Positions 3,005-32,245 of a DNA stretch of 64,000 bases are shown here, piece after piece (the stretch's first letter is position 1; every line of letters starts with the position of its first letter). Origin of the DNA: an uncultured Acidobacteriota bacterium (GTDB lineage Bacteria; Actinomycetota; Acidimicrobiia; Spongiisociales; ZC4RG35). Location of the stretch: assembly GCA_963828465.1 (NCBI GenBank), contig CAWHEU010000022.1, positions 4,577-68,576 on the forward strand, in the 5' to 3' direction. The position numbers and the translations under genes are program-made. The notes beneath the pieces were generated by a model, which did not search any database, was not told where the DNA came from, and was given only the letters and a program-made list of their open reading frames with translations.

Positions 3005-4035
3005 CCACGGTCGGCACCGATTTCCTCGACGAACTCGAGACGTACACCGAGATGGCTCGTCGCGCCGCCCTCTCGTATCTCCCGGAACGGAGAGAGACGG
3101 ATTACCTAGTCGACCCCGCTTTGGAGTATCTGGGGCGACCCGGGAAGGGACTTCGGCCGGCGTTGTGCCTGGCCACCTGCGAGGCCTTCGGAGGTGGGGT
3201 CGACGAAGCGATGCCGACGGCGGCCGCCCTCGAGCTCCTCCACACCGCCTTTCTGGTCCATGACGACGTCGAGGACGACAGTGAACTGCGCCGGGGCGAG
3301 CCCACCCTGCATCGCACCTACGGCCGTGCCCTCGCCATCAACGCCGGTGACGGACTCGCTGTTTTCGCACTCGGCGCTCTGAGGGAGAACGACCGAAAGC
3401 TGGGACGTCGTCTCGCCGCCCGGATCTGGTCCGAGTTCGACTTCATGGCACGTCAGACCGTAGAAGGACAAGCCATCGAGCTGGGATGGCAGCGTGATGC
3501 ACACCACGACCTGACCCCCGACGACTATCTCGACCTGATCATGAAGAAGACCTGCTGGTACACCACGGTGTTGCCGCTGAGGGTGGGGGCGCTGATCGGT
3601 AGCAAGAGGGCGGTGGAGCTCAGACCGATGCTGCGATTCGGGTTCTTCCTGGGCGCGGCCTTCCAGATCCGCGACGACATCCTCAACCTGACCGGGTCTC
3701 CCGAGCTGTATGGCAAGGAGCCCCTGGGAGATATCCGCGAGGGCAAGCGGACGTTGATTCTCCTTCATCTACTCGCCGCCACCACCCCTGCGGACCAGGA
3801 GCAGGTCGAGCGTTACCTTGCCATGGACCGGGTTGACCGATCCGACGCTGTGATCGCGGAGATCTTCACGATGATGCAGGACTACGGGAGTGTGGCGTTT
3901 GCCGAGGAGTTCGCCCGAGGTATCGCCCGATCAGCCGCGGTCGCATTCGACGAGGCCTTCGCCGATGTACCGGATTCGCCTGCCCGACGTTTCGTGCGCG
4001 ATCTCGTCCCTTATATGGTGGAGCGGGATCGATGA
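3001..4035 (+). CDS. polyprenyl diphosphate synthase (GGPP/FPP synthase family, trans-isoprenyl diphosphate synthase)
   Basis: First Asp-rich motif FLVHDDVEDDSELRRG and second motif FQIRDDILN. Length 344 aa. Confidence 0.9.
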   Translation: MTTVGTDFLDELETYTEMARRAALSYLPERRETDYLVDPALEYLGRPGKGLRPALCLATCEAFGGGVDEAMPTAAALELLHTAFLVHDDVEDDSELRRGEPTLHRTYGRALAINAGDGLAVFALGALRENDRKLGRRLAARIWSEFDFMARQTVEGQAIELGWQRDAHHDLTPDDYLDLIMKKTCWYTTVLPLRVGALIGSKRAVELRPMLRFGFFLGAAFQIRDDILNLTGSPELYGKEPLGDIREGKRTLILLHLLAATTPADQEQVERYLAMDRVDRSDAVIAEIFTMMQDYGSVAFAEEFARGIARSAAVAFDEAFADVPDSPARRFVRDLVPYMVERDR

Positions 4036-4045
4036 GCCGGTACGG

Positions 4046-8772
<4,727 letters not shown>

Positions 8773-11263: not shown

Positions 11264-12274
11264 GTGACAGGCACCGAGGCTCGTTCGGTGGTAGATGTCC
11301 ACAGCCATCTCCTTCCGAGGTCGGCCATCGCCGCTGCCGAGAAGGGTACCGACTGGTTCGGGTCGCGAATCGAGATCGACGACCTCGGCCGTCCCGAGAT
11401 CGTGACCGGCGACTACCGGGTCTCGATGGGCGGCCCGGCGCACTGGGAATCGATCGAGAAAAGGATCGCCCGCATGGACGACACGGGCGTCGACAGCCAG
11501 GTCATCTCACTCAACCCGATCCTGTTCCGCTACTACCTCGACCCCGACGACGCCATCGAATGCTCGAAGGCAGTCAACGACGAAATCGCCGGCATTGTCG
11601 CCGACCATCCCGATCGATTCGCCGGCTACGGGACCCTGCCAATGCAGGAACCCGCCGCCGCAGTGGGCGAACTGGAGCGGGTGATGTCCACCGCCGGGAT
11701 GGTCGGGGTGAGCGTCGGCACCCACGTCGGCGGGCTGAACTGGGACGAACCCGACCTCTTCCCGGTCCTCGAGGCTGCCGAGCAATCCAATGCCCTTGTC
11801 TTCGTCCACCCAGCCGCCTCCCGGCTGAAGGAGGCACTGCCTCGATATCACATGCGCAATTTCATCGCCAACCCCACCGAGACCACCATCGCCATCGGGT
11901 CTCTCATCTTCGGCGGCATCCTCGATCGTCTGCCCGGTCTCCGTCTCCTCTTCGCCCACGGTGGCGGCTACGCGTGTTGGGCCTACGCCCGTTTCGACCA
12001 TGGTCACGAGGTCAGACCCGAGGCCCGCGAGCATATTTCCAAGCTTCCGTCCGACTATCTGAGTGCCCTGTGGTACGACTCGCTGGTTCACGGGTACGGC
12101 AATCTGCGTCGGCTCGTCGACGTAGTCGGGATTGACCAGGTGGTATTGGGAACGGATTTCCCTGCCGACATGGGCCAGCCCGACCCGGTGGCCTGGATCG
12201 AGGGGAGCGACCTGTCCGAAACGGAGAAGGTCGCGGTGCTCGGTACGAATGCAGAAAGGTTGCTCGGATGGTGA
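11264..12274 (+). CDS. amidohydrolase-2 family hydrolase/decarboxylase (paralog of the 9062 gene)
   Basis: VDVHSHLLP, VFVHPAASR and FAHGGGYACWAYARFDHG are collinear with the 9062..10090 protein. The ORF is open from 11114. The GTG at 11264 gives an N-terminus matching the paralog; the 11114 start is also possible. Confidence 0.75.
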   Translation: MTGTEARSVVDVHSHLLPRSAIAAAEKGTDWFGSRIEIDDLGRPEIVTGDYRVSMGGPAHWESIEKRIARMDDTGVDSQVISLNPILFRYYLDPDDAIECSKAVNDEIAGIVADHPDRFAGYGTLPMQEPAAAVGELERVMSTAGMVGVSVGTHVGGLNWDEPDLFPVLEAAEQSNALVFVHPAASRLKEALPRYHMRNFIANPTETTIAIGSLIFGGILDRLPGLRLLFAHGGGYACWAYARFDHGHEVRPEAREHISKLPSDYLSALWYDSLVHGYGNLRRLVDVVGIDQVVLGTDFPADMGQPDPVAWIEGSDLSETEKVAVLGTNAERLLGW

Positions 12275-13218
12275 AGGACCCGTCAATCGAAACCGTCATG
12301 CCGGCTGGCGCCGCCAGGCTTCGTGAGCTCTTCCAGCGTCTCGATCCCAATTTCGCCAAGCTGTCGTCGACTCATCTGTCCAGGCTCCTCAGCCGGCCCG
12401 GGCTCGACGCCCGGACCAGGCTCCTGGTCCTGACGGGCCAGTACGCCACCACCGGGCGACACGACCAGTTGGGGGAAACCATCGAAGCCGCCCTCGATTC
12501 CGAAGTGCGCTCCTCCGACGTCCTCGAGGTCATCCTCCAGTGCTACGTATACACCGGGCCCTGGGTGGTGGCTGCCGCCGGTGGGGTGTATCTCCGAGTC
12601 CTGGAGCGACGGTCGGAGATCGAAGATGACCTGTCGGCCCGTGTCGACGACGGCGCCAACCGCAACTTGGAGGAGGAGCGTGCCACGTGGAGTGACGCTG
12701 ACCGCGACGACCCTCGGCTCCCCGACCTTATCGAACGGTACGGCTGGCACGGGATCTCGACTGGGCTCCGCCTCCGACCCCGTCATCACCTCAACCTCGC
12801 CGCCACCCTCGATGCTCTCGACCCCGACTACCTGCAGACCTGGCTCGACGCGATCTACGGAGGGATGTACGTCCGGGGCGTGCTCGACGACCGCACCAGG
12901 GTCATCTGCGTGGTGGGCAACACGCTGGCGGCGGGGGAGCAGCACCAATCCCGACGTCACATGCGATCCGCCCTCCGCAGCGGCGCCACACCCAAAGAGC
13001 TCCTCGAGGTGATCTTCCAGACCACGGGTCTGTTTGGCCACACCCATCTCATGCCGGCAGCCGTCGACGACCTGGTGCGGATCGTCGACGAGGAGGGACG
13101 TCTCGACGAGCTGGTTGCCCCTGACCGGATCGAAGAAGTCCGTCGGATCGTTGCGGCCCGGGCGGCCAGCCGTGGCGGCATCGCCGAGATCGATCTGAAG
13201 ACATCTGGAGGGGAAGGA
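12268..13218 (+). CDS. carboxymuconolactone decarboxylase (CMD/AhpD-like) family protein, two CMD-like halves; no stop codon before the downstream ketopantoate reductase
   Basis: Start ATG at 12268 overlaps the upstream stop (ATGGTGA). AhpD-like helical sequence. The frame continues without a stop into MSKRIGVLGAGAIG of the next gene. Confidence 0.6.
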
Positions 13219-14245
13219 ATGAGCAAGCGGATCGGGGTGCTCGGTGCCGGGGCCATCGGGAGCAGTGTCGGGGCCGACTTCACCGAGGCGAGGGAAGGAC
13301 GTCGTCCTGATCGACCAGTGGCCGGCCCACGTGGAGACGATGCGCACCGAAGGGCTGCGGGTGGTGATGCCGGACCGAGAGGTGAACGAGAAGGTCCGGG
13401 CGCTCCACATCGGTGAGCTGGCCACCGAGCGGCCCACATTCGATCTCGTGCTCCTCGCCGCCAAGTCCTACGACACCGTCTGGATGTGTCACCTGATCAA
13501 GCCATACCTGGCCGATGACGGTGTGTTCGTCGGCCTTCAGAACGGGATGAACGAGGAGATGATCACCCCGATCGTGGGCAGCGAGCGGTGCATCGCATGT
13601 GTCGTCGAGCTCTCCGCCGAGATCTGGGAGCCGGGGCTGGTGCAACGGGACACCACCAGGGAGGGGACCTGGTTCGCGGTGGGAGAGATCGACGGGGCGA
13701 TCTCCGATCGGGTCGAAGAAGTGGCGGCCTTGCTCCGGCATTCGGCCCGGGTCGACGTCACCGACAACATCTTCGGCGCCAAGTGGTCCAAGCTCGTCGT
13801 CAACTCGATGACCATGGGTCCTTATACACTGCTCGGGCTGAAGAACTGGGAGGCCTCGGCGCTACCGGGGATGACCGAGATCTCGGTGCGGCTCGGACGG
13901 GAGTCGGTGGCCGTAGGGGAGGGGCTCGGATACCGGCTCGAGCCGATCTTCGGGATGAGCGCCGAGCAGTTCAGCGGTACAGGCGACGAGATGCTGGTCA
14001 ACGCGATCCGGGTCCTGCATGGTCACATCGGGAAGGATGCGACCACGGCCACCGTCCAGGATCAGAGGAAGGGCCGCCGCACCGAACTGGAGCACATCAC
14101 GGGGACTGTGGTCCGCAAAGGGCGGGAGGTTGGGGTGCCCACCCCGGCCAACGATGCGGTTATGAAGCTGGCCGGTGAGATCGATCGGGGCGATCGGAAC
14201 ATGGAGCCGGCCAACCTCGACGCCTTGAAGACGCTTCTCGACTGA
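13219..14245 (+). CDS. 2-dehydropantoate 2-reductase (ketopantoate reductase, PanE/ApbA family); 1-nt frameshift at ~13291
   Basis: MSKRIGVLGAGAIGSSVGADFTEA is in the upstream frame and KDVVLIDQWPAHVE...LLAAKSYDT... in the +1 frame. Deleting one A in gaggcgAgggaagg restores TEAGKDVVLID. RBS GGAGGGGAAGGA precedes the ATG at 13219. Confidence 0.75.
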
Positions 14246-19244: not shown

Positions 19245-20812
19245 ATGACCGGAAGCACATCGCTTTGGGGAACGACCTACTTCCTGGCGCTGTTCGCCGC
19301 GATACTGGCCCTTCCCACCAGCTGGTTTCTCTTCCGTCGCTACCGGCGGTCGATTCTTCGGCTGATGAACGAGCGCTCCTCTGGCGATCAGATGGCGGAG
19401 GACATTGGTCCGATCCCTGACCACCCCCGGCCCACGGCGTCACCGCACACCGACGTCATCGAGGCGGGGTTGCGACGGAACGTGATCGTGGTGGTCATCG
19501 TCGCACTCGTCTCCGCGTTCGCCTTCGCCGCGTTGTTCCTGGTCTGGAACGAAGTCGGCCTCTCGGTCTGGCGGCTCTCGACCTTCGGCATTCTCTACTC
19601 CTGGCCGGCGGTGATCGGAGTCTGGATCGTCACCGGCGGGCGGCGACGATGGGTCCTTACTTCCCTGGCCGTGTACTTCGTCTCTCTGGCTATCGCCGTG
19701 ACCGTCGCCGGCGGCTCATGGGACGTGCCGGCGCAGTTGTTCCTGTTCAGCCTGGTCCCCACCGCGGCGATCATCGGGTTCCTCTCCCGCCGCTTTCGCG
19801 GTGTGGGCGCTTTGGTGCTCGGCACGATGATGCTTGCCCTGGCCGGCTCTCAAGCCTTCGCTTTCACCGTTTTCGGTAACGAGGTCTTGATCACAGCTTG
19901 GGCCGAGATTCTCACTGCGCTCGGCGTCACCAGCGGCATGGTGGCGTGGTTGGCTCTGATTGGGGTGGGGTTCGTGTTGTCCCTCCTCCTCGGAGTCGTC
20001 GCAACCAGGCTGCTGGCTGGGTGGTACGCGCGATTTGGCTTCTCGGATCAGATGCTGCTCCTCGGCTCGACCTTCCTGGTCTTCGCCGTCGACCAATCCG
20101 GGTCGGCGAGCACGACGGAGGGAGGCCCCTTTGGAATAGGGCTGCTCATCTATGTCGCCGCCGCCGTGGTCGCCTTCGTTCTGTATCGCCTCATCCATCG
20201 CCGAGCCGGTGGACCCGTCAACTCTGCTGATGCTCAGGGTGTTCTCATCCGACCCCACACGCCAACGTCTGCTCGACCAGATCGCGTCCAAATGGCGGTA
20301 TCTCGGCCCGGTCATGATGATCGGAGGGCCTGACCTGGCCGTGAACAACGTCGAGCCGGATGAATTCCTCGCCTTCGTGAGCGGCCGGACGCGGCGACTC
20401 TTCGTCAGCGGCCCCGAAGATCTCGCCGAGAGGATTGCGGAGCCTCGAGATACGGACCGACCGGGACGCCCGCTACCGGATCGACGAGTTCTTCTGTTTC
20501 GACGACACGTGGCGTTCCACCGTGAGCGAGCTGCTCGCACATAGCGACGCCGTGGTCATGGACCTGCGTTCGTTTGGCCCCGAGAACCGGGGGTCGAGCC
20601 ACGAACTAGAGCTGCTCGCCTCACGAGGCGCATTGGGCCGGACCGTCCTTCTGGTGGACCAGAGCACCGATCGCGCCCTGCTCGACACGATCCTCGCTTC
20701 AGTGCCTGAGTCCAAGCCCCCACCGTTCTCGTGCGTCCACGACGACCAAGCCGATGAGGCGACGCTGGCCTGCCTGGCAGCAGTTGAGGACGCCGTTGCA
20801 AGTCACGGGTAG
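19245..20812 (+). CDS. polytopic membrane protein (~8 TM) with a cytoplasmic C-terminal domain of unknown function; two apparent frameshifts (~20205 and ~20460)
   Basis: Three consecutive ORFs (19245.., 20152.., 20435..) are in three different frames. Each carries protein-like sequence: TM helices, then TLLMLRVFSSDPTRQRLLDQIASKWRYLGPVMMIGGPDLA…, then RYRIDEFFCFDDTWRSTVSELLAHSDAVVMDLRSFG…. This suggests one gene broken by indels. Confidence 0.5.
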
Positions 20813-20892
20813 TCGACCATCGGTAGCCTGGATGTCCCACGAATGAAGGGATTCTGACCATCGTCGATCCCTGAGGTCTGAAGGGGGGACTA

Positions 20893-22398
20893 ATGACCGG
20901 CGCAATGTCGGCACCGAATCCGACATCGCGTCCCAGTGACGCTGTCTTCATCAGCTACACACACGTAGACAACAAGCCGTTCGGCCCCGAGAAGCAACGT
21001 TGGATATCGCTCCTCGACGAGCATCTGAGCGTTCGACTCGAGCAACTTGCACCAGAGCATCACGTGTCGGTGTGGCGGGACGACAAGCTCCAAGGCAACG
21101 ACGTGTTCTCCGAGTCGCTGAAGGAGCGACTGGGGGAGGTAGCAGTGTTGATTTCGGTGTGTTCGCCCAGGTACTTGGTCTCGGAGTGGTGTCAGAGAGA
21201 ACTCAATGAGTTCGTGCAGGCCCAGGCGAAGCGGGGGCTCGAAGTAGGGACGAAGAGTCGGGTATTCAAGGTGATGAAGACACCGGTGCCTCTAGACGAA
21301 CTCCCTCCTCCGCTCGCTCCGCTGTTGGGGTACGAGTTCTATGAGGTATTGCCGGAAGGCGACCACTTTCGAGAATTCCTTCTCAACCCGAATGAGGAGG
21401 CGCGATGGAAGTTCTACGCTCGAGCGGACGATCTCGCCCAGGACATCGCCGATCTGCTCGACGAGTTGGCCGATGAGGCCGTCCGCCCCGAACCGGTCAC
21501 CTCCAGCACCGTGTATCTAGCTGCGACCACATCGGATGTCTCGGAGGGCCGGGACGACCTCAAGCGGGAACTGCAGCGACGCGGCTTCCGGGTATTTCCC
21601 GATCGCGACCTGCCTTTCGTGGCAGACGACCTGTCAGCGGCCATCACTGGCTGGTTGTCCGAGTCGGACTTCTCGATCCATCTCCTCGGTGCCCGGTACG
21701 GCGCCAGGCCAGAGGGTGACGATCGGTCGATTCCCGACCTGCAACTGGAGCTTGCCCGAGGGTTCGCCAACCGACAGGTTCTGACTCAGCTCATCTGCAT
21801 CAACGACGGGCACGAGGTGGTTGAAGAAGAGCAGGTCGAACTCATCGAGAGAGTCGAGACGACGAACGTCGGCCGAGGAGTCGAAGTGGTGAAGGCTCCG
21901 TTCGATAGGTTCAAGGAACATGTCCTGGACACGATGTCTCGGAGCCCGCTGGCGACAAAAGTGGATACCGGAGCAGAGGGTAGGACCGTCTACCTCGCCT
22001 ACGACCGGGTAGACAGCGAGGCAGCTGAAGCGCTGCAGACCTTGATCGAGGATCGGGGGTACAACGTTTTGTCGCCACTCATGGAGGGATCCGAGTCTGA
22101 AGTGCGTGAAGTCCACGAAACATCGATGGTGCTGAGTGACGCAGTGCTGATCTACTACGGCAAATGCACTGAGCACTGGGTGCGAATGCGGCTCTTCGAT
22201 CTCATGAAAGTGCGCGGGTGGGGCAGAACTGAGCCTTACCTGGCTCAAGCCCTGTGGGTCGGTGCTCCCGACACGCCACACAAGGCGAAGGTGCACATCA
22301 CACAGACTCTGCTCCTGAACGGCATGGCCGATCCCGCGCTGACGGCACTCGAGCCATTCCTCGTACGTCTGGAAGGGCGCGACGCGAGCAACGGATGA
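20893..22398 (+). CDS. TIR-domain protein (N-terminal canonical TIR plus two further degenerate TIR-like modules)
   Basis: DAVFISYTHVDNK…WRDDKLQGNDVF…AVLISVCSPRYLVSEWCQRELNEF is a textbook bacterial TIR. Two later blocks beginning TVYLAATTSD… and RTVYLAYDRVDSEAAEALQ… repeat the fold signature. Stop overlaps the next start (ATGA at 22395). Confidence 0.8.
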   Translation: MTGAMSAPNPTSRPSDAVFISYTHVDNKPFGPEKQRWISLLDEHLSVRLEQLAPEHHVSVWRDDKLQGNDVFSESLKERLGEVAVLISVCSPRYLVSEWCQRELNEFVQAQAKRGLEVGTKSRVFKVMKTPVPLDELPPPLAPLLGYEFYEVLPEGDHFREFLLNPNEEARWKFYARADDLAQDIADLLDELADEAVRPEPVTSSTVYLAATTSDVSEGRDDLKRELQRRGFRVFPDRDLPFVADDLSAAITGWLSESDFSIHLLGARYGARPEGDDRSIPDLQLELARGFANRQVLTQLICINDGHEVVEEEQVELIERVETTNVGRGVEVVKAPFDRFKEHVLDTMSRSPLATKVDTGAEGRTVYLAYDRVDSEAAEALQTLIEDRGYNVLSPLMEGSESEVREVHETSMVLSDAVLIYYGKCTEHWVRMRLFDLMKVRGWGRTEPYLAQALWVGAPDTPHKAKVHITQTLLLNGMADPALTALEPFLVRLEGRDASNG

Positions 22399-25300
22399 CG
22401 GCTACGTCCCCACTATTCAATCCCTTCCCCGGTCTTCGGCCGTTTCGCGAGGACGAGACACCTCTCTTCTTCGGCCGAGATGCCCAGATCGACGAGCTCC
22501 TCGCCGAACTGGGTAGGTCCCGATTCGTAGCAGTCATGGGAGCCTCCGGAAGCGGTAAGTCGTCCCTGGTCACCGCAGGGCTTCTGCCCGCGCTCCAGGG
22601 TGGACTCTCACCGCGATTGGGGGCCAATTGGCGCATCGCCAGCTTGCGCCCCGGGGGCGACCCGGTGCGCAACCTGGCCAGGGCCCTCGTCGAACCCGGC
22701 GTCCTCGATCGAGACGGCTCCGATGAGACCAGAGGCGTCGATCAAACGGAGGCGTTGCTCAGACGAAGCGGTCTTGGTCTCGCCGATCTGGCAAGACGTG
22801 ACGAGAGCCTGAGAGACGGCCGCCTACTGGTCGTTGTCGACCAGTTCGAGGAGTTGTTCCGATTTCAGGACGCTGGGGGCAGGGCACACGACGGCGCGGA
22901 CAATCCGGCATTCGTCCGGCTCCTGATCGAGGCTGTCGCCGACGAATCCAACGTGAGTGTGATCTTGACCATGCGATCCGACTACTTGGGGGATTGTTCC
23001 CAGTTCGACCAGCTGCCCGAGACGATCAACCAAGGGCTCTATCTCGTTCCCCGGCTTACACGCACGCAGCTCCGCGGGGCGATCACCGGTCCAGTCGCCG
23101 TCGGGGGCGGAACGATTGCCCCTCGACTTGTGCAACGGCTCCTGAACGACGCCGGCGCGGATCCCGACCAGCTGCCCGTGTTGCAGCACGCCCTGATGAG
23201 GATCTGGGACCTGTGGACTGGGGACGTGACTGCTCCTGGGCCAATCGACCTCGAGCATTACGAGGCTGCCGGCGGACTCGAGGAGGCGCTCGCCCGGCAT
23301 GCCGACGAGGCATATGACGATCTGACCGACGATCGGAGCCGGCGGATCGCGGAGCTTGCCTTCAAGCGCCTCACTGAGCTCGGAAACGATGGTCGCGAGG
23401 GCCGTCACCCGGCCACGTTGGCCGAGATCGCCTCTGTTGCAGATGCCACGGTCGAAGAAACGCGCGAGGTGATCCGTCACTTCGAGCAGCCGGGAAGATC
23501 CTTCGTCATGGTGTCTGATGACGGAGTCGTCGACATCTCCCACGAAAGCCTCATTCGCCAATGGCCGAGACTCCGTGACTGGGTTGGCGAGGAGGCGGCC
23601 TCCCGAGACACGTATCACCGGCTGGCCGAGTCCGCCGGCCGATGGCGTCGAGGTGAGGCTGCTCTCATGCGAGATCCGGATCTGCAGCTAGCTGTGAACT
23701 GGTGGACGGACAACCAGCCGAGCGGTGCCTGGGCCGAGCGGTACGGCTCGACATTCCAGGACGCAGCCGACTACCTGGATCGGAGCCGCAAAGCCGAGAG
23801 AAGCCGGCGGCTTCTGACGTGGTCCGGTGTCGCAGGGCTGGGCGTCCTGGCAGTCCTGTTCGCGGTGTTGGCTGTATGGGCGATAACGGCAGAACAGGAC
23901 GCGAAGTATCAGGAACGTCTTGCTGTCGGAAGGCAACTCTCCGCGGTCTCGACCGAGCACGGACCGGAGCGTCGGACAACCAGCATCCTCACCGCATTGG
24001 AGGCTCTTCGGACTACCGAGACCGACGGACTGCGTCTCCCGGAGGCCGAGGAGGCACTGCGTGCTGCGATGCACGACCCGCTCGGCATCCGACTCCCCGG
24101 CCAGCCGGGTCAGCTCGGCCATGACGAGGATGTGACGACACTGGGTTTCAGTCCCGACGGGAGATGGTTGGCGACGGGTAGCGCTGACGACACGGTGTTG
24201 CTATGGGATCTGGAGGACACGGAAGGGGACCCGCGTCCGTTGCCCGGTCATGCCGACGACGTGGTGGCGTTGGCGTTCAGCCCCGACGCCCGTTGGTTGG
24301 CCACCGGCAGTCTCGACGGCACCGCCATGTTGTGGGACCTGGAAGATGCGGAAGCCAAGCCCCGGATCCTGGACGGCCATACAGATGAGGTGACATCACT
24401 TGCCTTCAGCCCCGATGGCAGCTGGCTTGCCACCGGGAGCGTCGACGAAACCATCCAGCTCCGTGAATTGGACAACCCGGATCTCGTGGCCCGTGTCCTC
24501 CAGAGCGAGGCGGGATTCATCCTCTGCCTGGCCTTCAGCCCTGACGAGAGGTGGCTGGCGGCCGGCACTGGCACCGGCGTCGGGTATCTGTGGGACATGG
24601 GGAATCCCGGCGGCGACCCCGAGACGCTCAGCGGTCACAACGATGCTGTGGTCGCTGTCGCTTTCAGCCGTGACGGTGCTTCGCTGGCCACCGGGAGCAG
24701 GGATGCGACGATCCGGCTATGGGACCCCGACGTTCCGACCAATCCGTTTGCCAGGCTGGAACAAGGCGACGCGGTGCTCGGCCTGGTGCTCAGCTCCGAC
24801 GGGAGATGGCTAGCCACCGGCGGTGAGGACAACGCCGCCCGTGTTTGGGACCTCCAGCGGTTGAGAGGATCCCCTGACCCGTCACTAGTCCTCGTGCACT
24901 CCGGCCCCGTGGAACGGGTCTCCTTCAGTGCTGACAACCGCTGGCTGGCCACCGGTGGTCCTGGTGACCCGGCTCGGCTCTTCCAGGTCAACGACGCGTC
25001 TCTGCCGCCCGTGGTGCTCGCCGGCCCGGTCACGGCCCTCGGGTTCAGCACCGACGACCGATGGCTGGCGATCGGATCGGATCAGGGCTCGGCTCGCCTT
25101 TGGGGGACGGACCAACTCCCAACACAACCGGCAGTGCTCGATCACGACGACAAGGTCTCAGCGATCGAATTTGGCCCGGACGGTCGTGTGGCCACGGGGA
25201 CCACAGCCAATGTCACGCGTCTGTGGAGTCTCGACGACCCTTCGGCTGAGCCCGAAGTGCTAGCGCAAACGGATTTCGGGTTCGATATGGCACAGGTGGA

Positions 25301-26141
25301 AGCGATCGCGTTCAGACCCGACGGACGTATGTTGGCCACCGGCAGCGGTGACATGCGGGTCCGGTTGTGGACGCTGGATCCTTCAGGGTCCCAACTCGTA
25401 TCCGAGGAGCCTCTCGAGGCTGGAATCAATGATCTGGCCTTTAGTGCGGACGGGGACCGGCTTGCTATCGCGGTGAAGGAAGAGGATGTCTTGCTGTGGG
25501 ATGTGGCGGAGCGGTCGTTCGAGCGTCTCGAGGGTCACAGTGCTGAGGTGCGGAGCGTGGCCTTCAGCCCGAACGGACGTTTGCTGGCCACTGGAGACCT
25601 GGACGGGGAGATCCGGGTCTGGAATCTCGAAGATCTGGAGGTTCCTCCGGAGTCTCTGCGCGCCCATGCCGAGCGGGTGACATCGTTGGCCTTCGACGGA
25701 GAGGGACGTCAGCTCGCGTCCGGGAGCTGGGATCAGACCGTCCAGATCTGGGAGGTCGACACGCGGAGCTACATCACGTTGAACACAGATGGTCGGGTCG
25801 ACAATGTAGCCCTTCGACCCGATGGGAAGTTGATTGCAGTGGCAGCCGATCAACCTCATTTATGGGATCTGACCGCCCCCGACCAGAACGACCCGATCGC
25901 CAATCCTGTCATTCTGCGGGACCACACCAGCGTCGTGAACGCGGTTGCATTCAGCGCGGACGGGAGATGGCTCGGTACCGGGAGTGACGATCACTCCGTT
26001 CGTCTCTGGCTCCAACTGGAGGAATTGGCAGAGCTCGGCTGTGCCAGCGCGGGACGGAACCTGAGTCACGACGAGGTGCAGGAAATCAATCCCGGCGCCA
26101 AGAGCGTTAGCACGTGCGAAGAATGGCCCGAGGGGTCTTAG
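22395..26141 (+). CDS. nSTAND-type P-loop NTPase (NACHT-like) with a central TM helix and ~15 C-terminal WD40 repeats
   Basis: PFPGLRPFREDETPLFFGRDAQIDELL…RFVAVMGASGSGKSSLVTAGLLP carries a Walker A motif. Walker B is LLVVVDQFEE. The hydrophobic segment LLTWSGVAGLGVLAVLFAVLAVWAI is a TM helix. Then ~15 repeats of the type GHxDxVxxLAFSPDGRWLATGSxDxTxxLWDL. Confidence 0.85.
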   Translation: MTATSPLFNPFPGLRPFREDETPLFFGRDAQIDELLAELGRSRFVAVMGASGSGKSSLVTAGLLPALQGGLSPRLGANWRIASLRPGGDPVRNLARALVEPGVLDRDGSDETRGVDQTEALLRRSGLGLADLARRDESLRDGRLLVVVDQFEELFRFQDAGGRAHDGADNPAFVRLLIEAVADESNVSVILTMRSDYLGDCSQFDQLPETINQGLYLVPRLTRTQLRGAITGPVAVGGGTIAPRLVQRLLNDAGADPDQLPVLQHALMRIWDLWTGDVTAPGPIDLEHYEAAGGLEEALARHADEAYDDLTDDRSRRIAELAFKRLTELGNDGREGRHPATLAEIASVADATVEETREVIRHFEQPGRSFVMVSDDGVVDISHESLIRQWPRLRDWVGEEAASRDTYHRLAESAGRWRRGEAALMRDPDLQLAVNWWTDNQPSGAWAERYGSTFQDAADYLDRSRKAERSRRLLTWSGVAGLGVLAVLFAVLAVWAITAEQDAKYQERLAVGRQLSAVSTEHGPERRTTSILTALEALRTTETDGLRLPEAEEALRAAMHDPLGIRLPGQPGQLGHDEDVTTLGFSPDGRWLATGSADDTVLLWDLEDTEGDPRPLPGHADDVVALAFSPDARWLATGSLDGTAMLWDLEDAEAKPRILDGHTDEVTSLAFSPDGSWLATGSVDETIQLRELDNPDLVARVLQSEAGFILCLAFSPDERWLAAGTGTGVGYLWDMGNPGGDPETLSGHNDAVVAVAFSRDGASLATGSRDATIRLWDPDVPTNPFARLEQGDAVLGLVLSSDGRWLATGGEDNAARVWDLQRLRGSPDPSLVLVHSGPVERVSFSADNRWLATGGPGDPARLFQVNDASLPPVVLAGPVTALGFSTDDRWLAIGSDQGSARLWGTDQLPTQPAVLDHDDKVSAIEFGPDGRVATGTTANVTRLWSLDDPSAEPEVLAQTDFGFDMAQVEAIAFRPDGRMLATGSGDMRVRLWTLDPSGSQLVSEEPLEAGINDLAFSADGDRLAIAVKEEDVLLWDVAERSFERLEGHSAEVRSVAFSPNGRLLATGDLDGEIRVWNLEDLEVPPESLRAHAERVTSLAFDGEGRQLASGSWDQTVQIWEVDTRSYITLNTDGRVDNVALRPDGKLIAVAADQPHLWDLTAPDQNDPIANPVILRDHTSVVNAVAFSADGRWLGTGSDDHSVRLWLQLEELAELGCASAGRNLSHDEVQEINPGAKSVSTCEEWPEGS
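24100..26010 (+). repeat. ~15 tandem WD40 repeat units (coding repeats) forming two beta-propellers
   Basis: The recurrent peptide AFSPDGRWLATGS…RLWDL is visible ~15 times, including the degenerate units at ~25142 and ~25860. Confidence 0.8.
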
Positions 26142-26151
26142 GCGCGGTCGC

Positions 26152-27213
26152 TCAGGACGGCGGGGGGGAGATCAGGGTCACTACTGCCAAGAACTCGCCG
26201 TCGTTGTTGGTGACGCCGATGTCGTTGATCCCGAGGTAGAGACGACCGTCGGATTCGACGGTCGTCTGGAACTCACTGCCCACTTCGAACGGGACCCCAT
26301 TCTCTCCGATTTTTCCGATGAGCCCGGCATGATTGGCATCCTCGACCCCGGGCAGATTGGATTCGTGTCCCGGAAGGTTGGGGTCACCATCAGGAGTGAG
26401 CAGCGGGCCGTTCTCGGAGTGCTTTATCCGGCCGCCGGCTTCGATGTCGAGTGTGACTCCCGTGACGACATCGATACCGGAGTCCGTCCACAACACCGTG
26501 CCGGGCACCCGGACAGTCTGAGTTTTCGATGGCTCGGCATCGCATGCCTGAAATCCACCGACAAACTCTCCAAGCGGCGGAGCATCCGGGTCCAGCCGCG
26601 CCTCCTCGAACCACGCATTGAATTCTTGGGTGGGAACGCATATCGCGGGCCCCGGGGCCTGGCCTTTGGTCAGAAACGCGGCCTCGGTATAGGTTCCCTC
26701 CCTTGCCTCGTAGGTCTGGGAAAGACCCTCGGAGGTGAGCTCGATCGACCCCTTCTTGACCACGACACACGTGTTCTCAGTCGGCGGCTGACAAGCCGTG
26801 AACACCGTGGCGGGCTCCAATGCCGTGATGGTCGAGCTCGACGTTTCCAGTGTCAGACGGGTGTCGCTCACTTCGTCGTCGGTGAAGGTGACATGACCGC
26901 CGCCGAGGTACGCCCTCGCTTCCGCCGGTTCCCAGCTCTCGAGTTGGATGGCCGCCTGCCTGGACAACTCGAATCTGCCCAGGTCTCGGATCGTGAGGAG
27001 CCCACTGGCGCCGGGCCCCAACGTGATCTGGTTTCCCAGATCGATCGATTCACCGTCCCCGGTGCCGATCTCGGTTTCGCTCACCGAAATAGGGCCCTTA
27101 TAGACAACCAGATCTGCCTGCATGGGCGGTGTGACTTCATCTCCTCCGCAGGCAGCTAAGGCGAGGGTGATGAGCGTGATAGCCAGTCCCCCCCGAGACT
27201 TCCGTCGCAACAT
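26152..27213 (-). CDS. secreted lipoprotein with a beta-rich C-terminal domain, function unknown
   Basis: MLRRKSRGGLAITLITLALAACGGDE gives a lipobox LAAC. The Gly/Thr/Asp-rich C-terminus looks like a beta-sandwich. The ORF extends to 27258. Confidence 0.65.
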   Translation of the reverse strand: MLRRKSRGGLAITLITLALAACGGDEVTPPMQADLVVYKGPISVSETEIGTGDGESIDLGNQITLGPGASGLLTIRDLGRFELSRQAAIQLESWEPAEARAYLGGGHVTFTDDEVSDTRLTLETSSSTITALEPATVFTACQPPTENTCVVVKKGSIELTSEGLSQTYEAREGTYTEAAFLTKGQAPGPAICVPTQEFNAWFEEARLDPDAPPLGEFVGGFQACDAEPSKTQTVRVPGTVLWTDSGIDVVTGVTLDIEAGGRIKHSENGPLLTPDGDPNLPGHESNLPGVEDANHAGLIGKIGENGVPFEVGSEFQTTVESDGRLYLGINDIGVTNNDGEFLAVVTLISPPPS

Positions 27214-27395
27214 GCTCCCTCCAGTCCGGTCAACTCTATCCGAGGTCTGGTGGCCCAACAGGGCGAGAACCGCATATGGGCCACCATCCCGAAAGGAGCG
27301 GGTTGGAGCGGCGCTGATACGAGGATCGGGCCGCCCACGACGGCCGTCTCCGGTTAGCCCAGCCGCGTAGGCTCGGCCGTCGAAAGGGGGACTCG

Positions 27396-28344
27396 ATGGC
27401 CCATGTGACTTTCGTTCACGGAATCATGAATCAGCCTTCGCCCGCACGTCTGCTCAGGGAGTGGAAGCGGGACTTGGCCGACGGTGGGGACGGAGTGGAT
27501 CTCGATGTGTACGGCGTGACGTCATCGATGGTGTACTGGGCGGACGTCATGTATGCCGCCGCCACCGACGCCGGGGGCAGCCTCTCACGAGTCGATCGAG
27601 TACGAGGGCATCGAGTCGGGCGCCCTCACCGAGGTCGACGAGTCGTACATCGCCGAAGCGAGCGGGGACGAGAAGGACTTCATCGAGTCGATGATCGCCA
27701 ACTACGACCTCGACCATCCCGACGTGCCGGCAGCCGAGGCCGCTCCGGACGCGGGGGCAGAGGCCAGGGTGGCGGCGGCGTCGGCGTTGGAGGCAATACC
27801 TCTGCCGTGGTTCGTCAAGCGGCCGCTGATGCGGCTGCTGTTGCGTGACGTCCACCACTATCTCTTCAACACCAGTCATTCGCCTCGAACCGGGTCCAGC
27901 TACAAGGTCCGCGATGAGGTGAGGAAGCGGTTCGGCGCCGACCTCGGGGCCGTCGACGGTGGGCCCCATGTCGTAGTTGCGCACAGCCTCGGCTCGGTGA
28001 TCGCGTATGACTGTCTCAAACGGGTTGCCGGCACCAAGAAAGTGGACCTGCTGATCACGATCGGCACGCCGCTCGGCATGTCCGAGGTCCAGCACAACTT
28101 GAAGCCAGAGTGGTCGAAGGACGACGGCTACCCCGGAGAACTGCCGCGCTGGGTGAACGTGGTCGATCGTCTCGACCCGGTTTGTGTGGCCGACCCGATC
28201 ATCGCCAACGACTACATGCGGAAGAAGGCAGGCGTGGTGGTCGACGAGGTCGTGTCCAACGGCGGGGTGATGCGCCATCCGTCCGGCAAGTACTTCCGAC
28301 AGGCGGTCGTTCAGGATGCGGTGCGCAATGGATTGGGTGTCTGA
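27396..28344 (+). CDS. alpha/beta-hydrolase fold (lipase/esterase-like, GxSxG = AHSLGS); 1-nt frameshift in a G5 run near 27580
   Basis: N-terminus VTFVHGIMNQP, the nucleophile elbow VVVAHSLGSVIAYDCL and LLITIGTPLG are in two frames. These join at gccGGGGGcagc (27575-27586). RBS aaagggggac before the ATG. Confidence 0.7.
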
Positions 28345-28353
28345 GGGAGCCGG

Positions 28354-29919
28354 ATGTCGTTCTTCGACTCGCCACTTGGTGAGCAGCTCCGCTCCAGCCT
28401 CGATGCGGGGAAACCAGAGGACATCGCCGCCGCGGTAGGGGTGGTCAAGGGGAAGGTGTGGTCGGGGACAGTGCAGCCCGATCAGGTCGACGAGGTCCTC
28501 GCAGAACTGCAGCGACAACGACAGGTTCAGCACGTCATCGACATCGCCGATGCGGCCACCGCGGTCGGCTCGATCACGACGTCGGGCCGTCGCCGCTACT
28601 GCCAGATGCTGATCGAGTCGGGAGCCCTCCATGCCGGCGAGCTCGCCTGCGCAGAGCTTCTCGATCTGGCCGAGGATGCGAAGGAGCGGGGGGAGGCACT
28701 GGGGCTGCTCGGGCGGATCCGCAAGCAGCGTTACGTGACCAGCCGCCGGCCCGAGGATTTGATCGGCGCAATTGCCGCCTATCAGTTCGCATACGCGGGA
28801 GGCGGCGACCCGCTCTGGCATGGCATCAATCTCCTCGCACTCACCACCCGGGCCCATCGTGACGGAATCCTCGTTCCCCAACCGGTCGACACGGACGCTC
28901 TGACACGCACGCTCCTCGACGTAGTCAGGCAGACGGCACCCGAGTTGCAAGAGATCTGGGAGCGCACCACCGAGGTCGAGGCCCTGGTCGCCCTGGGCGA
29001 CAAGGCGTCGGTGGACGAAGCGGTGTCGGTGGCACAGAAACTCGCCAGCAGCAAGAGTGTCCGGCCGTTTGAGCTGGAGAGCCTTCGCCGTCAGCTGGCC
29101 GACATCTGGGAACTCGAGCCGCATCACCCGGTGCTGGTGGCCATCGCAGCGCAGAAGCTCCAACTCGGGGCCAGGGCCCATGTCGAGCTGCCCGATTCCG
29201 CGGGCCAGTTGGAGAAGATCTTCGGGACGGCCCTGCCTGTGGGGTACAAGCACCTGATGAGGGGTCTCGAGTGCGCAGAATCGGTGGGAAAGATCACCGA
29301 CGCATCCGAAGAGCCGTGGGGCACGGGATTCCTCCTACGCGGGAATCTGATCCATCCCGACTTCGGCGATGGACTGGTGCTGGCTACCAACGCCCACGTC
29401 TGTAGTCCAGAGCCCGGAGTGGGCAAGCTGCTGCCGAGCGAGGCGAAGGCTGTCTTCGACGTGACCAAGTCGGTCGATGGGGAGCAACTCGTCCTCACCG
29501 GCTTCGAGTGCCTGTGGAGCTCACCACCCTCGGTATGCGATGTCACCATCCTTCGCTTCACCGGACCCGAGCCGGCGCTCAAAGGCCAGCTCGACGTCGC
29601 CGCGTTGCCCCAGCCAGTGACGGAGGGCGCATATGTCTATGTCATCGGCCATCCGGCGGGGGGTGGGATCAAGTTTTCGATCAGGGGCAACGACCTTCTC
29701 GCCTATGACGCCGACATGTTCAAAGTCCACTACACCGCCCCCACCGAAGGGGGCAGCTCCGGGAGCCCGGTCTTCAACCAGGCATGGCAGCTGATGGCTG
29801 TTCATCACGCTGGAGATTCGAAGATGCACCGACTGGACGACCCTTCCGCTACGTATCAGGCCAACGAGGGGATCACGATCAAGGGGATCAGAGAGGAGTA
29901 CTCCAAGAATGGAAAATGA
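28354..29919 (+). CDS. N-terminal alpha-helical (TPR-like) domain fused to a C-terminal trypsin-like serine protease
   Basis: Catalytic triad context: LATNAHV (His), YDAD (Asp), GGSSGSPVF (Ser) in the C-terminal ~220 aa. The N-terminal ~300 aa is helical. No signal peptide. Confidence 0.8.
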   Translation: MSFFDSPLGEQLRSSLDAGKPEDIAAAVGVVKGKVWSGTVQPDQVDEVLAELQRQRQVQHVIDIADAATAVGSITTSGRRRYCQMLIESGALHAGELACAELLDLAEDAKERGEALGLLGRIRKQRYVTSRRPEDLIGAIAAYQFAYAGGGDPLWHGINLLALTTRAHRDGILVPQPVDTDALTRTLLDVVRQTAPELQEIWERTTEVEALVALGDKASVDEAVSVAQKLASSKSVRPFELESLRRQLADIWELEPHHPVLVAIAAQKLQLGARAHVELPDSAGQLEKIFGTALPVGYKHLMRGLECAESVGKITDASEEPWGTGFLLRGNLIHPDFGDGLVLATNAHVCSPEPGVGKLLPSEAKAVFDVTKSVDGEQLVLTGFECLWSSPPSVCDVTILRFTGPEPALKGQLDVAALPQPVTEGAYVYVIGHPAGGGIKFSIRGNDLLAYDADMFKVHYTAPTEGGSSGSPVFNQAWQLMAVHHAGDSKMHRLDDPSATYQANEGITIKGIREEYSKNGK

Positions 29920-30721
29920 CGCAATCCCTCCGGAGTTCCTGGAGCCCGAGGGCGACGCCGAGCGCCAGGATCCCGACCTCGTCTTCGAGACGACGTCAGC
30001 GACACTACGGGGGCTGTGGAATGACTGGATGTGCAAACGAGGTGACGGGACTTTCGTCGACGTCGAATTCTTCGGCCGCCGGATCGGCGGAGTGCCGACC
30101 CCGGCGGTCGACGCCTATCGGGCGCTCGAGGTAGCCCTGCGCTCCGCCGGTTACAAGCCAGATTCGCGGTGGGCGTACAACTGCAGGCTCATCGAGGGGA
30201 CGGACAAGCCCTCGCTGCACTCGGCCGGGATCGCAGTTGACATCGACCCGGACGAGAACCCGTTCTCGAAGGGTGACCCCTTCGCCGGGAAGATGGGTCC
30301 CGACCATGTCGCCGCGGCGCTGGCCATTCGCAACAGCGCCGGCGCCCGGGTGTGGTCCTGGGGCGGGCATTGGAACAAGCCCGATCGGATGCACTTCCAG
30401 CTCGACAGGGGGCCTGCGGCGGTGGATGTGGATTGGCGAACCGTCCCCGGTGGTGGCCCCGAAAGCGCCAGTTCGGGGTCAATGGACGTGAAGGAGGAAG
30501 AGATGGTTCTGTCCAAGAGCATGAAAGGCCCAGCAGTGGAGCGGTTCCAGCAGTGCCTGCTCGATTGGAATGCCAAGGCGCTGCCGAAGGACGGAGCCGA
30601 TGGTGTTTTTGGGAGCGAGACCGTCGAATGGGTGGGGCGGTTCCAGGAGGCCCTTGGTCTGGAGAAGACCGGAGTGATCGACGGGGTGACCGCGGCCTTG
30701 CTGGTCGCCCACGGGAAGTAA
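29909..30721 (+). CDS. M15 family (VanY/D-Ala-D-Ala carboxypeptidase-like) zinc peptidase with a C-terminal peptidoglycan-binding (PG_binding_1) domain; no signal peptide
   Basis: SLHSAGIAVDID (H…D zinc ligands) and GGHWNKPDRMHFQ (His). C-terminal GPAVERFQQCLLDWN…DGVFGSETVEWVGRFQEALGL matches the PG-binding fold. 11-nt overlap with the upstream stop. Confidence 0.8.
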   Translation: MENDAIPPEFLEPEGDAERQDPDLVFETTSATLRGLWNDWMCKRGDGTFVDVEFFGRRIGGVPTPAVDAYRALEVALRSAGYKPDSRWAYNCRLIEGTDKPSLHSAGIAVDIDPDENPFSKGDPFAGKMGPDHVAAALAIRNSAGARVWSWGGHWNKPDRMHFQLDRGPAAVDVDWRTVPGGGPESASSGSMDVKEEEMVLSKSMKGPAVERFQQCLLDWNAKALPKDGADGVFGSETVEWVGRFQEALGLEKTGVIDGVTAALLVAHGK

Positions 30722-30727
30722 CAAGCC

Positions 30728-32245
30728 ATCAAGGTCTTCCTGAGCTACCGGCGGGACGACACGGCGGGGCGCGCCGGAAGGCTCCACGACGCCCTGGCCT
30801 CGAGTTTCGGCACCCGCAACGTGTTCATGGACGTTTCCGCCATCGCGGTCGGCACCGACTTCGTCGACCAGGTGGAACGAGCGATCTCGACGAGCGACGC
30901 CTCGCTGGTGGTGATGGGGCCGAATTGGCTCGGGGCCACTGACCCCGAAGGCCGTCGGCGGCTCGACGATCCCCAGGACCACGTGAGGTCTGAGGTGCGC
31001 TCCGCGCTGGCCTCACCCAACCCGGTGGTTCCGGTGCTGGTCGGGGATGCATCGTTGCCGACCGAGGACCAACTGCCTGACGATCTGAAAGCCCTGGCGC
31101 GCCGACAAGCCGTGGAATTGCGGGACGAGACATGGTCTGAAGATGTCGAGATGCTGGTCCGGCGTCTCGAAGGCAAGGAGACGGTCCGGGAACCCCGCCG
31201 CTGGATTCTGCTGGCCATTGGCTTGATACTCCTGGGTGGCGTCGGCGCCGCTATCTGGATGGCTCAGGCAGGCGGCGAGGATGAGTTGACCCAATGCTCG
31301 GTGCCGGACGAGACATGGACCACGATCGACGTGGAACCCGGCGCCACGGACGTCGAACAATTGGAGCGGGATCGGGCACTCCGCTACACGGTGGTGAGTA
31401 CGGATTTCAGGGATGAACCCGGGGACGAGTGGTACGTCGTGCTCCATGTGAGGCTGGAGAACGAGTCCACGGACGTGGCGGGAAACGACGACCACACCGG
31501 GTACGGACCGTCGATCTTCGACGCCCTGCACGTCGATGAGATCTCGGTCGGGGGCCCTTACTGCTTTGGCGAGAACAGTGGTGACAGCGATCTCGCCCCG
31601 GGGGAGGCGGCCAACGCACGGGTTGGATTCCTCTCCGTACCTGGACCCCACCGAGGCAAGTCTGATGCTCGAGACCGATGGGCCCCTCTTTATCGAGATC
31701 ACCCCGGGCGCGTGATGCCGACGGTCCTGTTCTCGGGCCACATGGTCGATGCACCAGACCGGCCGTCTCCACGCTTCCCACCCGAGCGTGTTCCCCTGGT
31801 GCGGCGGGCGATCGCGGAAGCCGTCTGGCTCATCGATGACACCGACGCGGAGGCGATCTCGGGACTCGCCTGCGGGGGCGATCTCCTCTTCGCCGAGGAA
31901 TGGCTGAAGACCGGGCGGCCCTTGCACGCCTATCTGCCACGTGAAGAGGCGGATTTTCTCGACGAGTCGGTTCGTTTTGCCGGCTCGGAGTGGGTGGACT
32001 CGTTCCGTGAAGTGACCGCTGATCCGAACCTGGTCCTGATCGGTCCGGACCAAGAGATGCTTGGTTTGAACGAACCGCACACCGCGAACAACCTCCGCAT
32101 GCTCGAAGCTGCGTTGCTGCGGCCCGGCGCCCTCAACGGTCTGTTCCTTTGGGACGGCAAGGGAGGCGACGGTCCGGGAGGCACCGAGCACCTGGCCTCT
32201 GAGGTGGTCGAGCAGGGCGGGAGTGTCACCGTTCTCCGTCCGTAG
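30728..32245 (+). CDS. TIR domain – TM helix – C-terminal Rossmann-like (LOG/SLOG-like) domain protein; non-canonical start (ATC where ATG is expected)
   Basis: (I/M)KVFLSYRRDDTAGRAGRLHDALASSFGTRNVFMDVSAIAVGTDF…ASLVVMGPNWL is a canonical TIR. TM helix RRWILLAIGLILLGGVGAAIWMA. The C-terminus has ISGLACGGDLLFAEEWL … LFLWDGKGGDGPGGTEHL, reminiscent of LOG/SLOG Rossmann domains. The reading frame is open only from the TAA of the upstream gene (30719-30721). The first in-frame ATG (30830) lies inside the TIR domain. Confidence 0.65.
   Translation: MKVFLSYRRDDTAGRAGRLHDALASSFGTRNVFMDVSAIAVGTDFVDQVERAISTSDASLVVMGPNWLGATDPEGRRRLDDPQDHVRSEVRSALASPNPVVPVLVGDASLPTEDQLPDDLKALARRQAVELRDETWSEDVEMLVRRLEGKETVREPRRWILLAIGLILLGGVGAAIWMAQAGGEDELTQCSVPDETWTTIDVEPGATDVEQLERDRALRYTVVSTDFRDEPGDEWYVVLHVRLENESTDVAGNDDHTGYGPSIFDALHVDEISVGGPYCFGENSGDSDLAPGEAANARVGFLSVPGPHRGKSDARDRWAPLYRDHPGRVMPTVLFSGHMVDAPDRPSPRFPPERVPLVRRAIAEAVWLIDDTDAEAISGLACGGDLLFAEEWLKTGRPLHAYLPREEADFLDESVRFAGSEWVDSFREVTADPNLVLIGPDQEMLGLNEPHTANNLRMLEAALLRPGALNGLFLWDGKGGDGPGGTEHLASEVVEQGGSVTVLRP

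Follow-up and report, generated by a model that had tools for sequence, protein, structure and literature searches.

Two overlapping genes in a 64,000-nucleotide stretch of DNA (the window, to which all positions below refer; contig CAWHEU010000022.1 of GCA_963828465.1, a metagenome-assembled genome of 3.07 Mb) probably constitute a two-gene conflict system, one serving antiphage defence or cell death. Gene A (20893-22398, + strand) encodes a protein of 501 aa with three TIR-like domains, the proposed effector. Gene B (22395-26141, +) encodes a protein of 1248 aa, the proposed receptor and switch, in which a STAND NTPase is connected to WD40 repeats through a single helix predicted to cross the membrane. 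According to this reading, B is a type-II transmembrane STAND receptor and A is a TIR effector docked on it in advance. The role in defence or cell death is one that we infer from the logic of the domains and the genomic context.

A first-pass annotation had described the locus as a 501-aa TIR protein, translationally coupled through an ATGA overlap to a protein of about 1,250 aa with an nSTAND P-loop NTPase, one transmembrane helix and some 15 WD40 repeats. It did not recognise the pair as a named system and likened it to NLR-like and Avs-like conflict systems. The parts list stands: the two reading frames are as described, and Pfam profiles for TIR, nSTAND1 and WD40 all give strong matches. 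Neither PADLOC nor NCBIfam supplies a name for the pair, in line with its having gone unrecognised. What has changed is the picture of protein A, which is more than a simple TIR protein, the predicted place of the sensor, and the choice of nearest kin.

A conserved gene pair at a variable site

The overlap of the two genes occupies 22395-22398 (+), with the ATG of B beginning at 22395 and the TGA of A at 22396-22398, an arrangement that suggests translational coupling. A Shine-Dalgarno-like purine run, GAAGGGGGGA (20880-20889, +), can be read in the sequence 3 nt 5' of the ATG of gene A. A longer form of B, starting with a GTG at 22254 in an open reading frame (ORF) listing, finds no support, since its homologues (n = 34) begin at an N-terminus of the form M-x7-NPFPGLRPF. 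Within 20300-27600, a scan returned zero promoter-like sites and one terminator-like site, a number below chance expectation. Among the sequencing runs listed as containing the window, none is of RNA, and those of DNA carry just small shares of it.

Homologues of A fall into more than 534 clusters, nearly all with proteins of about 500 aa. In collections holding one genome per species, at least 504 loci match A, in Acidimicrobiales, Thermoleophilia, Acidobacteriota, Bacteroidota, Cyanobacteria, Verrucomicrobiota, Proteobacteria and others. The linkage of the two genes was counted in the best 80 of these (at least 504) loci, which come from many phyla. A gene encoding an nSTAND1 protein adjoins the A homologue in 78 of the 80, and each of the remaining two breaks off just past A. 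As a rule, the partner is the next gene downstream, on the same strand, and either overlaps A by 4 bp or follows closely; most of the 80 show an overlap of 4 bp or 1 bp or a gap of fewer than 20 bp. Independent metagenome contigs carry the same pair amid unrelated neighbours. The A-B pair, whose conservation the first-pass annotation had proposed as a check, is a conserved module, and it occurs in hundreds of species belonging to many phyla.

No third gene common to all 80 loci was found, only neighbours specific to particular lineages: a lipoprotein gene in actinobacterial loci, a gene encoding a TrkA_N+RyR protein in 14 Bacteroidota loci, and a CHAT-TPR gene in nine loci. The gene for the TrkA_N (NAD-binding)+RyR protein, of 649 aa, immediately precedes that for the A homologue on the same strand (6031-7980 in locus L033, and likewise in 13 other Bacteroidota loci). 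The window lacks such a gene, and one lies about 7 kb from A in a Thermoleophilia locus, L001. That locus is a dense cluster of conflict-type genes, with a TIR_2-WD40 fusion of 1018 aa (816-3872, -), a TIR_2 protein of 442 aa (11961-13289, -) and a Peptidase_C11 protein.

Close to home, the pair is rare. A is present in one of 24 other species of the genus, and it was not found in any of 16 genomes representing the order's other families, nor in a sample of 400 genomes drawn from the phylum. In that single congener (G006), a block consisting of A, B and the lipoprotein gene lies between the same flanking genes as in the window, but inverted. In G008, another species of the genus, these flanks have 3.1 kb of other cargo between them, encoding a Big_9+TPR protein and a hypothetical protein. 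The A-B pair, then, occupies a variable site whose flanks are conserved, and it is not the core housekeeping locus that the first-pass annotation had named as the alternative. Between the B proteins of the window and G006, identity is 70% in the NTPase and 47% in the WD40 region, the faster-diverging of the two. A recombination site that might account for the inversion was considered and rejected. The best inverted repeat (20674-20706/27310-27342, 33 nt) falls within both breakpoint intervals, but it is just 73% complementary, too weak to be counted as such a site.

Conflict-type genes recur beside the pair, in the window (those encoding the TPR-S+trypsin and TIR proteins described below) and at other loci (TIR-WD40, Peptidase_C11, CHAT-TPR, Schlafen/AlbA_2). 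Such neighbours, the patchy distribution, the variable site and the fast-diverging WD40 region all fit a conflict system.

Protein B as a predicted membrane receptor

By its profile match, its Walker motifs and its C-terminal repeats, all of them present, protein B belongs to the STAND NTPases and within them to the nSTAND1 clade, which was defined in 2021 (eLife; PMC8195603). PF20703 (nSTAND1) matches residues 10-420 (22422-23654, +) with an E-value of 2.8e-102 and 343.6 bits against a cut-off of 27.1, and B is the top nSTAND1 match in a scan of its own genome. The Walker A motif lies at G49-S57 (22539-22565, +) and the Walker B motif with its acidic pair at residues 144-153 (22824-22853, +), the latter including DQFEE at 149-153; FFGRD is found at 25-29. 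All three motifs, quoted already in the first-pass annotation, are invariant or nearly so in 34 homologues of B, and G49, G54, K55, S56, D149, E152 and E153 are invariant. The same genome (G000) has a second nSTAND1 match at C18:182385-183490 (-). It is split among four fragments that differ in frame, and one of these contains a TGA; decay of a paralogue or an artefact of assembly probably explains it.

B contains a sole strongly hydrophobic segment, residues 473-499 (23811-23891, +), with a Kyte-Doolittle mean of 2.67 over 19 aa. The runner-up reaches 1.48 and lies within a WD40 strand. In the AF2 model, the segment is part of one continuous helix (residues 454-542, pLDDT >90) and is not a buried core helix. 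It corresponds to the one transmembrane helix that the first-pass annotation had predicted, and it is a predicted type-II signal anchor. The WD40 strands begin at about residue 580. The WD40 region as a whole, the proposed sensor, spans residues 575-1210 (24117-26024, +; Pfam WD40, E 1.5e-114) and comprises 15 blades, 14 recognised by motif and one by eye at about residue 1099, matching the earlier estimate.

The helix is a property of the family. In 68 of the 72 nSTAND1 partners long enough to judge, the NTPase is followed at once by a single hydrophobic helix, 19-27 residues long. Lysine and arginine residues flanking the helix number 6.5 on average on its N side against 3.4 on its C side, the N side having more in 61 of the 68, and this charge bias predicts that the NTPase lies inside and the repeats outside. 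The C-terminal repeat module of the homologues is WD40 or TPR. The four partners without the helix include two from the same contig (L003 and L014) with SpoIIE/PP2C and one (L059) with PAS; the fourth (L050) is an artefact of ORF calling. In the helix-less partners with SpoIIE/PP2C or PAS, domains of a cytoplasmic type take the place of the outside repeats. For B itself, sequence and structure model together predict a WD40 region outside the cytoplasm and an NTPase inside.

To our knowledge, all prokaryotic STAND/NLR-like sensors characterised so far are cytoplasmic and are held off by their own sensor domain. One might therefore suppose that the hydrophobic segment of B does not span the membrane or is a mere tether, that the WD40 region is cytoplasmic, and that B detects phage proteins in the cytosol like any other NLR-like sensor. 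Such an arrangement would preserve the contact between sensor and NTPase that STAND autoinhibition normally requires, and it would accommodate the few family members that have no helix. Nonetheless, it is very unlikely. The segment consists of 19-27 uncharged residues bracketed by charges, it occurs at the same place in the 68 partners just counted with a consistent positive-inside bias, and it is modelled in a long exposed helix. Moreover, since there is just one such helix, the two ends of B should lie on opposite sides of the membrane.

Protein A and its predicted docking on B

The AF2 model of protein A (mean pLDDT 86) consists of three beta-alpha domains in series. The TIR domain that the first-pass annotation had seen is the first of these; the two that follow are TIR-like domains that it had missed (a DUF4062 match at residues 207-285 and a third domain at 362-497), and the catalytic glutamate is present in the first domain only. 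A Foldseek search with the whole model returned tandem-Rossmann dehydrogenases at TM 0.13-0.24, an uninformative result, and folds were compared instead domain by domain with VIA-align.

Domain 1 (residues 15-197; 20935-21483, +) is a canonical TIR. TIR_2 of Pfam matches residues 18-112 (E 4e-15, 56.8 bits, cut-off 28), and the fold matches the TIRs of RPP1 (Z 13.3, root-mean-square deviation 2.7, 138 residues aligned) and SARM1 (Z 11.8). Glu103 (codon 21199-21201) is present in 36 of 36 homologues and aligns with the glutamate of WCLDEL (the WCxDEL motif) in the TIR of ADR2. That glutamate, on helix alpha-C, is the catalytic residue of plant TIRs. By fold and by residue, domain 1 is a TIR of the NADase type with its catalytic glutamate intact, and it is predicted to cleave NAD+. 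The best NCBIfam match of this TIR is FxsC_Nterm, at 52.2 bits, under the cut-off of 130.

Domain 2 (residues 203-352; 21499-21948, +) resembles DUF4062/NIR domains. Over residues 207-285, PF13271 (DUF4062) scores 24.5 bits with the whole protein, slightly short of the cut-off of 24.7; it scores 26.9 bits with the domain alone and 27.7 in the genome scan. Structural matches are to MilB (Z 12.1), the TIR of IL-1RAcPb (Z 11.9) and RCL (Z 11.6). In an alignment with eight canonical domains from related genomes, Gln284 (codon 21742-21744) falls on the conserved glutamate of DUF4062 that precedes an aromatic residue, and among 36 A sequences this column holds Q in 34, E in one and V in one. Domain 2 thus lacks the catalytic glutamate that, where helix alpha-C begins, should precede an aromatic residue. 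DUF4062/NIR domains are TIR-like NADases, and Glu-to-Gln mutants of them are inactive (bioRxiv 10.64898/2026.09.04.749371, 10.64898/2026.05.01.722283). Because of Gln284 and those inactive mutants, NADase activity of domain 2 is doubtful, and the domain is probably not an NADase. Three residues of the domain, W302, Q314 and E331, are conserved in the family. Elsewhere in the genome, a DUF4062 domain (39 bits) at C2:173535-173735 (-), with which an open frame of 1030 aa begins, keeps the Glu-aromatic motif (…EREF…), unlike domain 2 of A.

Many bacterial TIRs produce signals, as is established for Thoeris, and the TIR of A might do the same, making a signalling nucleotide (a Thoeris-like isomer of cyclic ADP-ribose or something similar) that is read by the Gln-bearing DUF4062-like domain or by an unlinked protein, with no depletion of NAD+. 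It would be in keeping with this that A retains a second, probably non-catalytic domain of a nucleotide fold, with W302, Q314 and E331 conserved in its family, and that it shows a weak match to ThcB4 of type III Thoeris (NCBIfam). That match, however, amounts to 22.9 bits, far under the cut-off of 220, and no recurrent ThsA-like (SIR2, Macro, SLOG) or caspase-like effector was found beside the pair in the 80 loci. We regard a signalling nucleotide as distinctly improbable and depletion of NAD+ as the predicted output. The assignment of the pair to Thoeris itself was rejected on the ThcB4 score, on a ThsB_TIR E-value of 0.068 and on the want of a recurrent ThsA-like neighbour.

Domain 3 (residues 362-497; 21976-22383, +) has, in the AF2 topology, the form of a divergent TIR/flavodoxin-like domain. 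It has no catalytic glutamate, Arg431 standing at that position of the helix, and its fold matches are generic (TIR-STING at Z 11.4, but also CheY and Rab-like folds). By hhalign, its relation to domain 2 is weak (E 8e-4, probability 24%, 103 columns), and no relation of domain 1 to either of the other two was found. Searches of PDB sequences with domains 2 and 3 gave chance matches only.

It is domain 3 that is predicted to hold A to B. The complex of A with residues 1-470 of B was predicted with custom alignments in three runs, alongside controls. The pair scored 0.75 and the best control 0.00. A mark of 0.75 is reached by 58 of 80 solved complexes versus two of 110 mismatched pairs, a comparison that is rough here because custom alignments were used. 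The runs agree in at least 74% of contacts, with a pLDDT of at least 75 for the partner. The predicted interface brings residues 322-350 (the end of domain 2) and 396-444 (domain 3) of A onto residues 22-37, 65-79 and 222-251 of B, domain 3 providing the bulk of it. The model therefore has A docking on the NTPase of B by way of domain 3. We know of no solved complex of this TIR-like/STAND kind, so that the prediction is unlikely to reflect a memorised template, though it conceivably could.

Proposed mode of action, kin and genomic setting

Put together, these predictions suggest a course of events. B would insert as a type-II single-pass protein, its nSTAND1 module in the cytoplasm, its helix crossing the membrane and then forming a stalk, and its 15 blades outside, as sequence features conserved in the homologues imply. 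A, made in step with B by virtue of the ATGA overlap, would bind the N-terminal face of the NTPase, chiefly through domain 3, as in the model of the complex. An extracytoplasmic ligand or a disturbance of the envelope might then cluster or reorient the receptors, leading to nucleotide exchange and oligomerisation of the STAND modules, on the pattern of other STAND/NLR proteins. Oligomerisation would gather the TIRs of A, with Glu103, into active sites, and hydrolysis of NAD+ would stop growth or kill the cell, to judge from the TIR NADases of bacteria, plants and SARM1. The Gln-bearing DUF4062/NIR-like domain, given the inactive Glu-to-Gln mutants of NIR, would most likely act as a scaffold or as a nucleotide-binding regulator and not as an enzyme.

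A more specific form of this account can be put forward only tentatively. In it, the pair is a transmembrane STAND immune receptor whose outside WD40 or TPR repeats sense an event beyond the cell, for instance phage adsorption or a breach of the envelope; its single helix would relay the signal to the cytoplasmic nSTAND1 module, which would switch on a pre-docked TIR NADase. This would make it a prokaryotic hybrid between the topology of Toll-like receptors and the switching of NLRs, present in hundreds of species.

The closest described kin of the pair are the TIR-ParA apoptosis systems, composed of TIR-FC/FxsC and ParA-sensor proteins and predicted by comparative genomics (bioRxiv 10.64898/2026.10.19.760177). 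Some of their subtypes are fused to nSTAND1, and a receptor-like form is a type-II single-pass protein that has its sensor outside the cell; the ParA-less variants in that paper are direct TIR-STAND fusions, not two genes (10.64898/2026.10.19.760177). The likeness lies in a downstream NTPase switch with variable sensors and perhaps also in the upstream gene. In those systems it encodes an active conventional TIR with at least one inactive TIR domain, to which A may correspond: it has two further TIR-like domains without a catalytic glutamate, and the best NCBIfam match of its TIR, below the cut-off, is FxsC_Nterm. The differences are several. B has no ParA domain, nor any room for one, because nSTAND1 spans 10-420 and the helix comes at 473. 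In B, the STAND module itself would be the cytoplasmic part of the type-II receptor, with WD40 or TPR as the sensor outside. Lastly, the middle domain of A is DUF4062-like, and no match to the C-terminal FxsC model of NCBIfam was found.

Each of the Avs, bNACHT and TIR-NLR defence proteins is one polypeptide, located in the cytosol, where it senses proteins of phages. The A-B pair shares with them an effector, a STAND NTPase and a repeat sensor, and oligomerisation and abortive infection would be expected of it as well. It differs in having a separate gene for the effector, an NTPase of the nSTAND1 clade and a transmembrane helix between sensor and NTPase. In PADLOC, the pair gives a WD40-level match to HEAT-ARM_XIII and a weak P-loop match only. 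With no system profile matched and the effector in a gene of its own, an assignment to Avs or bNACHT was rejected. Comparative genomics thus supports the interpretation of the first-pass annotation as an NLR-like conflict or defence system, with the refinement that the WD40 region is predicted to lie outside, unlike the cytosolic sensors of Avs and bNACHT; TIR-ParA systems are nearer.

For domain 2 of A, the kin are NIR/DUF4062 effectors (PsAvs2, Vulcan, Vesta, Swarozyc, Evangelion) and the eukaryotic NIR-NACHT-WD40 proteins TEP1 and NWD1. Domain 2 matches MilB, RCL and TIR folds, as reported for NIR, and TEP1 and NWD1 likewise combine a DUF4062-like domain with a STAND NTPase and WD40 propellers. 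The family of domain 2 differs from all of these in that it has glutamine for the catalytic glutamate (34 of 36) and stands on a separate protein, behind a canonical TIR. Two further comparisons are analogies. Apaf-1 is a cytosolic STAND NTPase with a 15-blade WD40 sensor. B resembles it in both parts, with homology confined to the shared domains, and differs in its predicted place at the membrane. Toll-like receptors resemble the pair in having repeats on the outside, a single helix through the membrane and, within the cell, TIR signalling; they have no NTPase, and their TIRs are scaffolds. A published description of the A-B pair was not found in the literature on nSTAND1, DUF4062, STAND with transmembrane, TIR and WD40, of which coverage was incomplete, so this is not proof of absence.

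Convergent with B in the window is a gene for a predicted lipoprotein (26152-27213, -) of 353 aa, with the lipobox L-A-A-C and a PA-IL/LecA-like C-terminal region. Its minus frame is backed by third-codon-position GC. Homologues lie convergent directly after B in three actinobacterial loci (L009, 8664-10832; L011, 13340-14395; L012, 13282-15324), and the homologue in L004 scores 21 bits with PF07828, below the cut-off of 22.5. The gene moves with A and B in the inversion of G006. The lipoprotein may be a third component or an extracytoplasmic partner of the WD40 sensor.

Upstream of A, a gene at 19245-20812 (+) is split over three frames, with shifts near 20210 and 20420. Its counterpart in G008 is an intact ORF of 527 aa (L104, 8529-10112), for which no Pfam match was found. 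The broken gene is either a pseudogene or an error of assembly.

To the right of the lipoprotein gene lies a putative separate conflict operon of four abutting genes (27553-32245, +), conserved as the right flank in congeners G001, G006 and G008. Its products are an abhydrolase-like protein, a TPR-S+Trypsin_2 protein, a Peptidase_M15_4+PG_binding_1 protein and a TIR protein with a transmembrane helix. PADLOC found no system match among the neighbouring genes, giving weak protease-level matches for the TPR-S/trypsin protein only. The last gene (30722-32245, +) encodes a second TIR_2 protein, with a TIR, one hydrophobic helix and a C-terminal region. This TIR begins four codons past the TAA of the M15-peptidase/PG-binding gene (29909-30721), in the same frame. 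No ATG, GTG or TTG precedes its first strand, and use of the first canonical start, a GTG at 30821, would remove the TIR. Possible explanations are initiation at an unusual codon, readthrough, a fusion, or an error in the sequence.

Perhaps the same architecture serves an end other than defence against viruses: a transmembrane device for signalling or cell fate that responds to an external cue (wall damage, contact with kin or competitors, a developmental signal), with the TIR enzyme as its output. The sensor is predicted to lie outside, where the phage proteins sensed by Avs and bNACHT do not occur, and neighbouring genes encode exported or wall-active proteins (the lipoprotein with its lectin-like end and the M15 peptidase with its PG-binding domain). 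The TIR-ParA preprint, moreover, predicts similar receptor-like systems that sense a breach of the peptidoglycan (10.64898/2026.10.19.760177). We consider such a device fairly unlikely all the same, as a patchy distribution, a variable site and a fast-evolving sensor suit conflict systems better than they suit a developmental pathway. Besides, to sense the breach of the wall by a phage is still immunity, and here the alternative overlaps with a conflict system.

Several observations nevertheless weigh against a pre-docked receptor and effector in conflict. In canonical STAND autoinhibition, the sensor folds back onto the NTPase. With a membrane in between this could not happen, so that activation must differ from that of known NLRs, and any scheme for it is speculative. 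The location of the WD40 region outside the cytoplasm is inferred from hydrophobicity, charge bias and the structure model. Interface residues are no more conserved than the rest of their domains (permutation p ~0.5 for A and ~0.1 for B), and conservation therefore adds no independent support for the interface. The A of the window has Cys at 302, where 34 of 36 homologues have Trp. The sequence comes from a metagenome-assembled genome and has a frame-broken gene just upstream, so local sequence errors are possible. Finally, no system model matching the pair was found in PADLOC or NCBIfam.

If the pair is a transmembrane STAND receptor nonetheless, then bacteria would survey the exterior of the cell with machinery of the NLR type, and a widespread family with the membrane between sensor and NTPase would need a principle of activation other than the known one. 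A STAND protein that spans the membrane and senses outside would, if confirmed, be a conceptually important feature. The pair also offers an adaptor interface of a predicted new kind, at which a TIR-like domain would meet a STAND NTPase, and a natural Glu-to-Gln DUF4062/NIR domain whose role is open to study. As a compact unit of two genes, it lends itself to cloning and testing.

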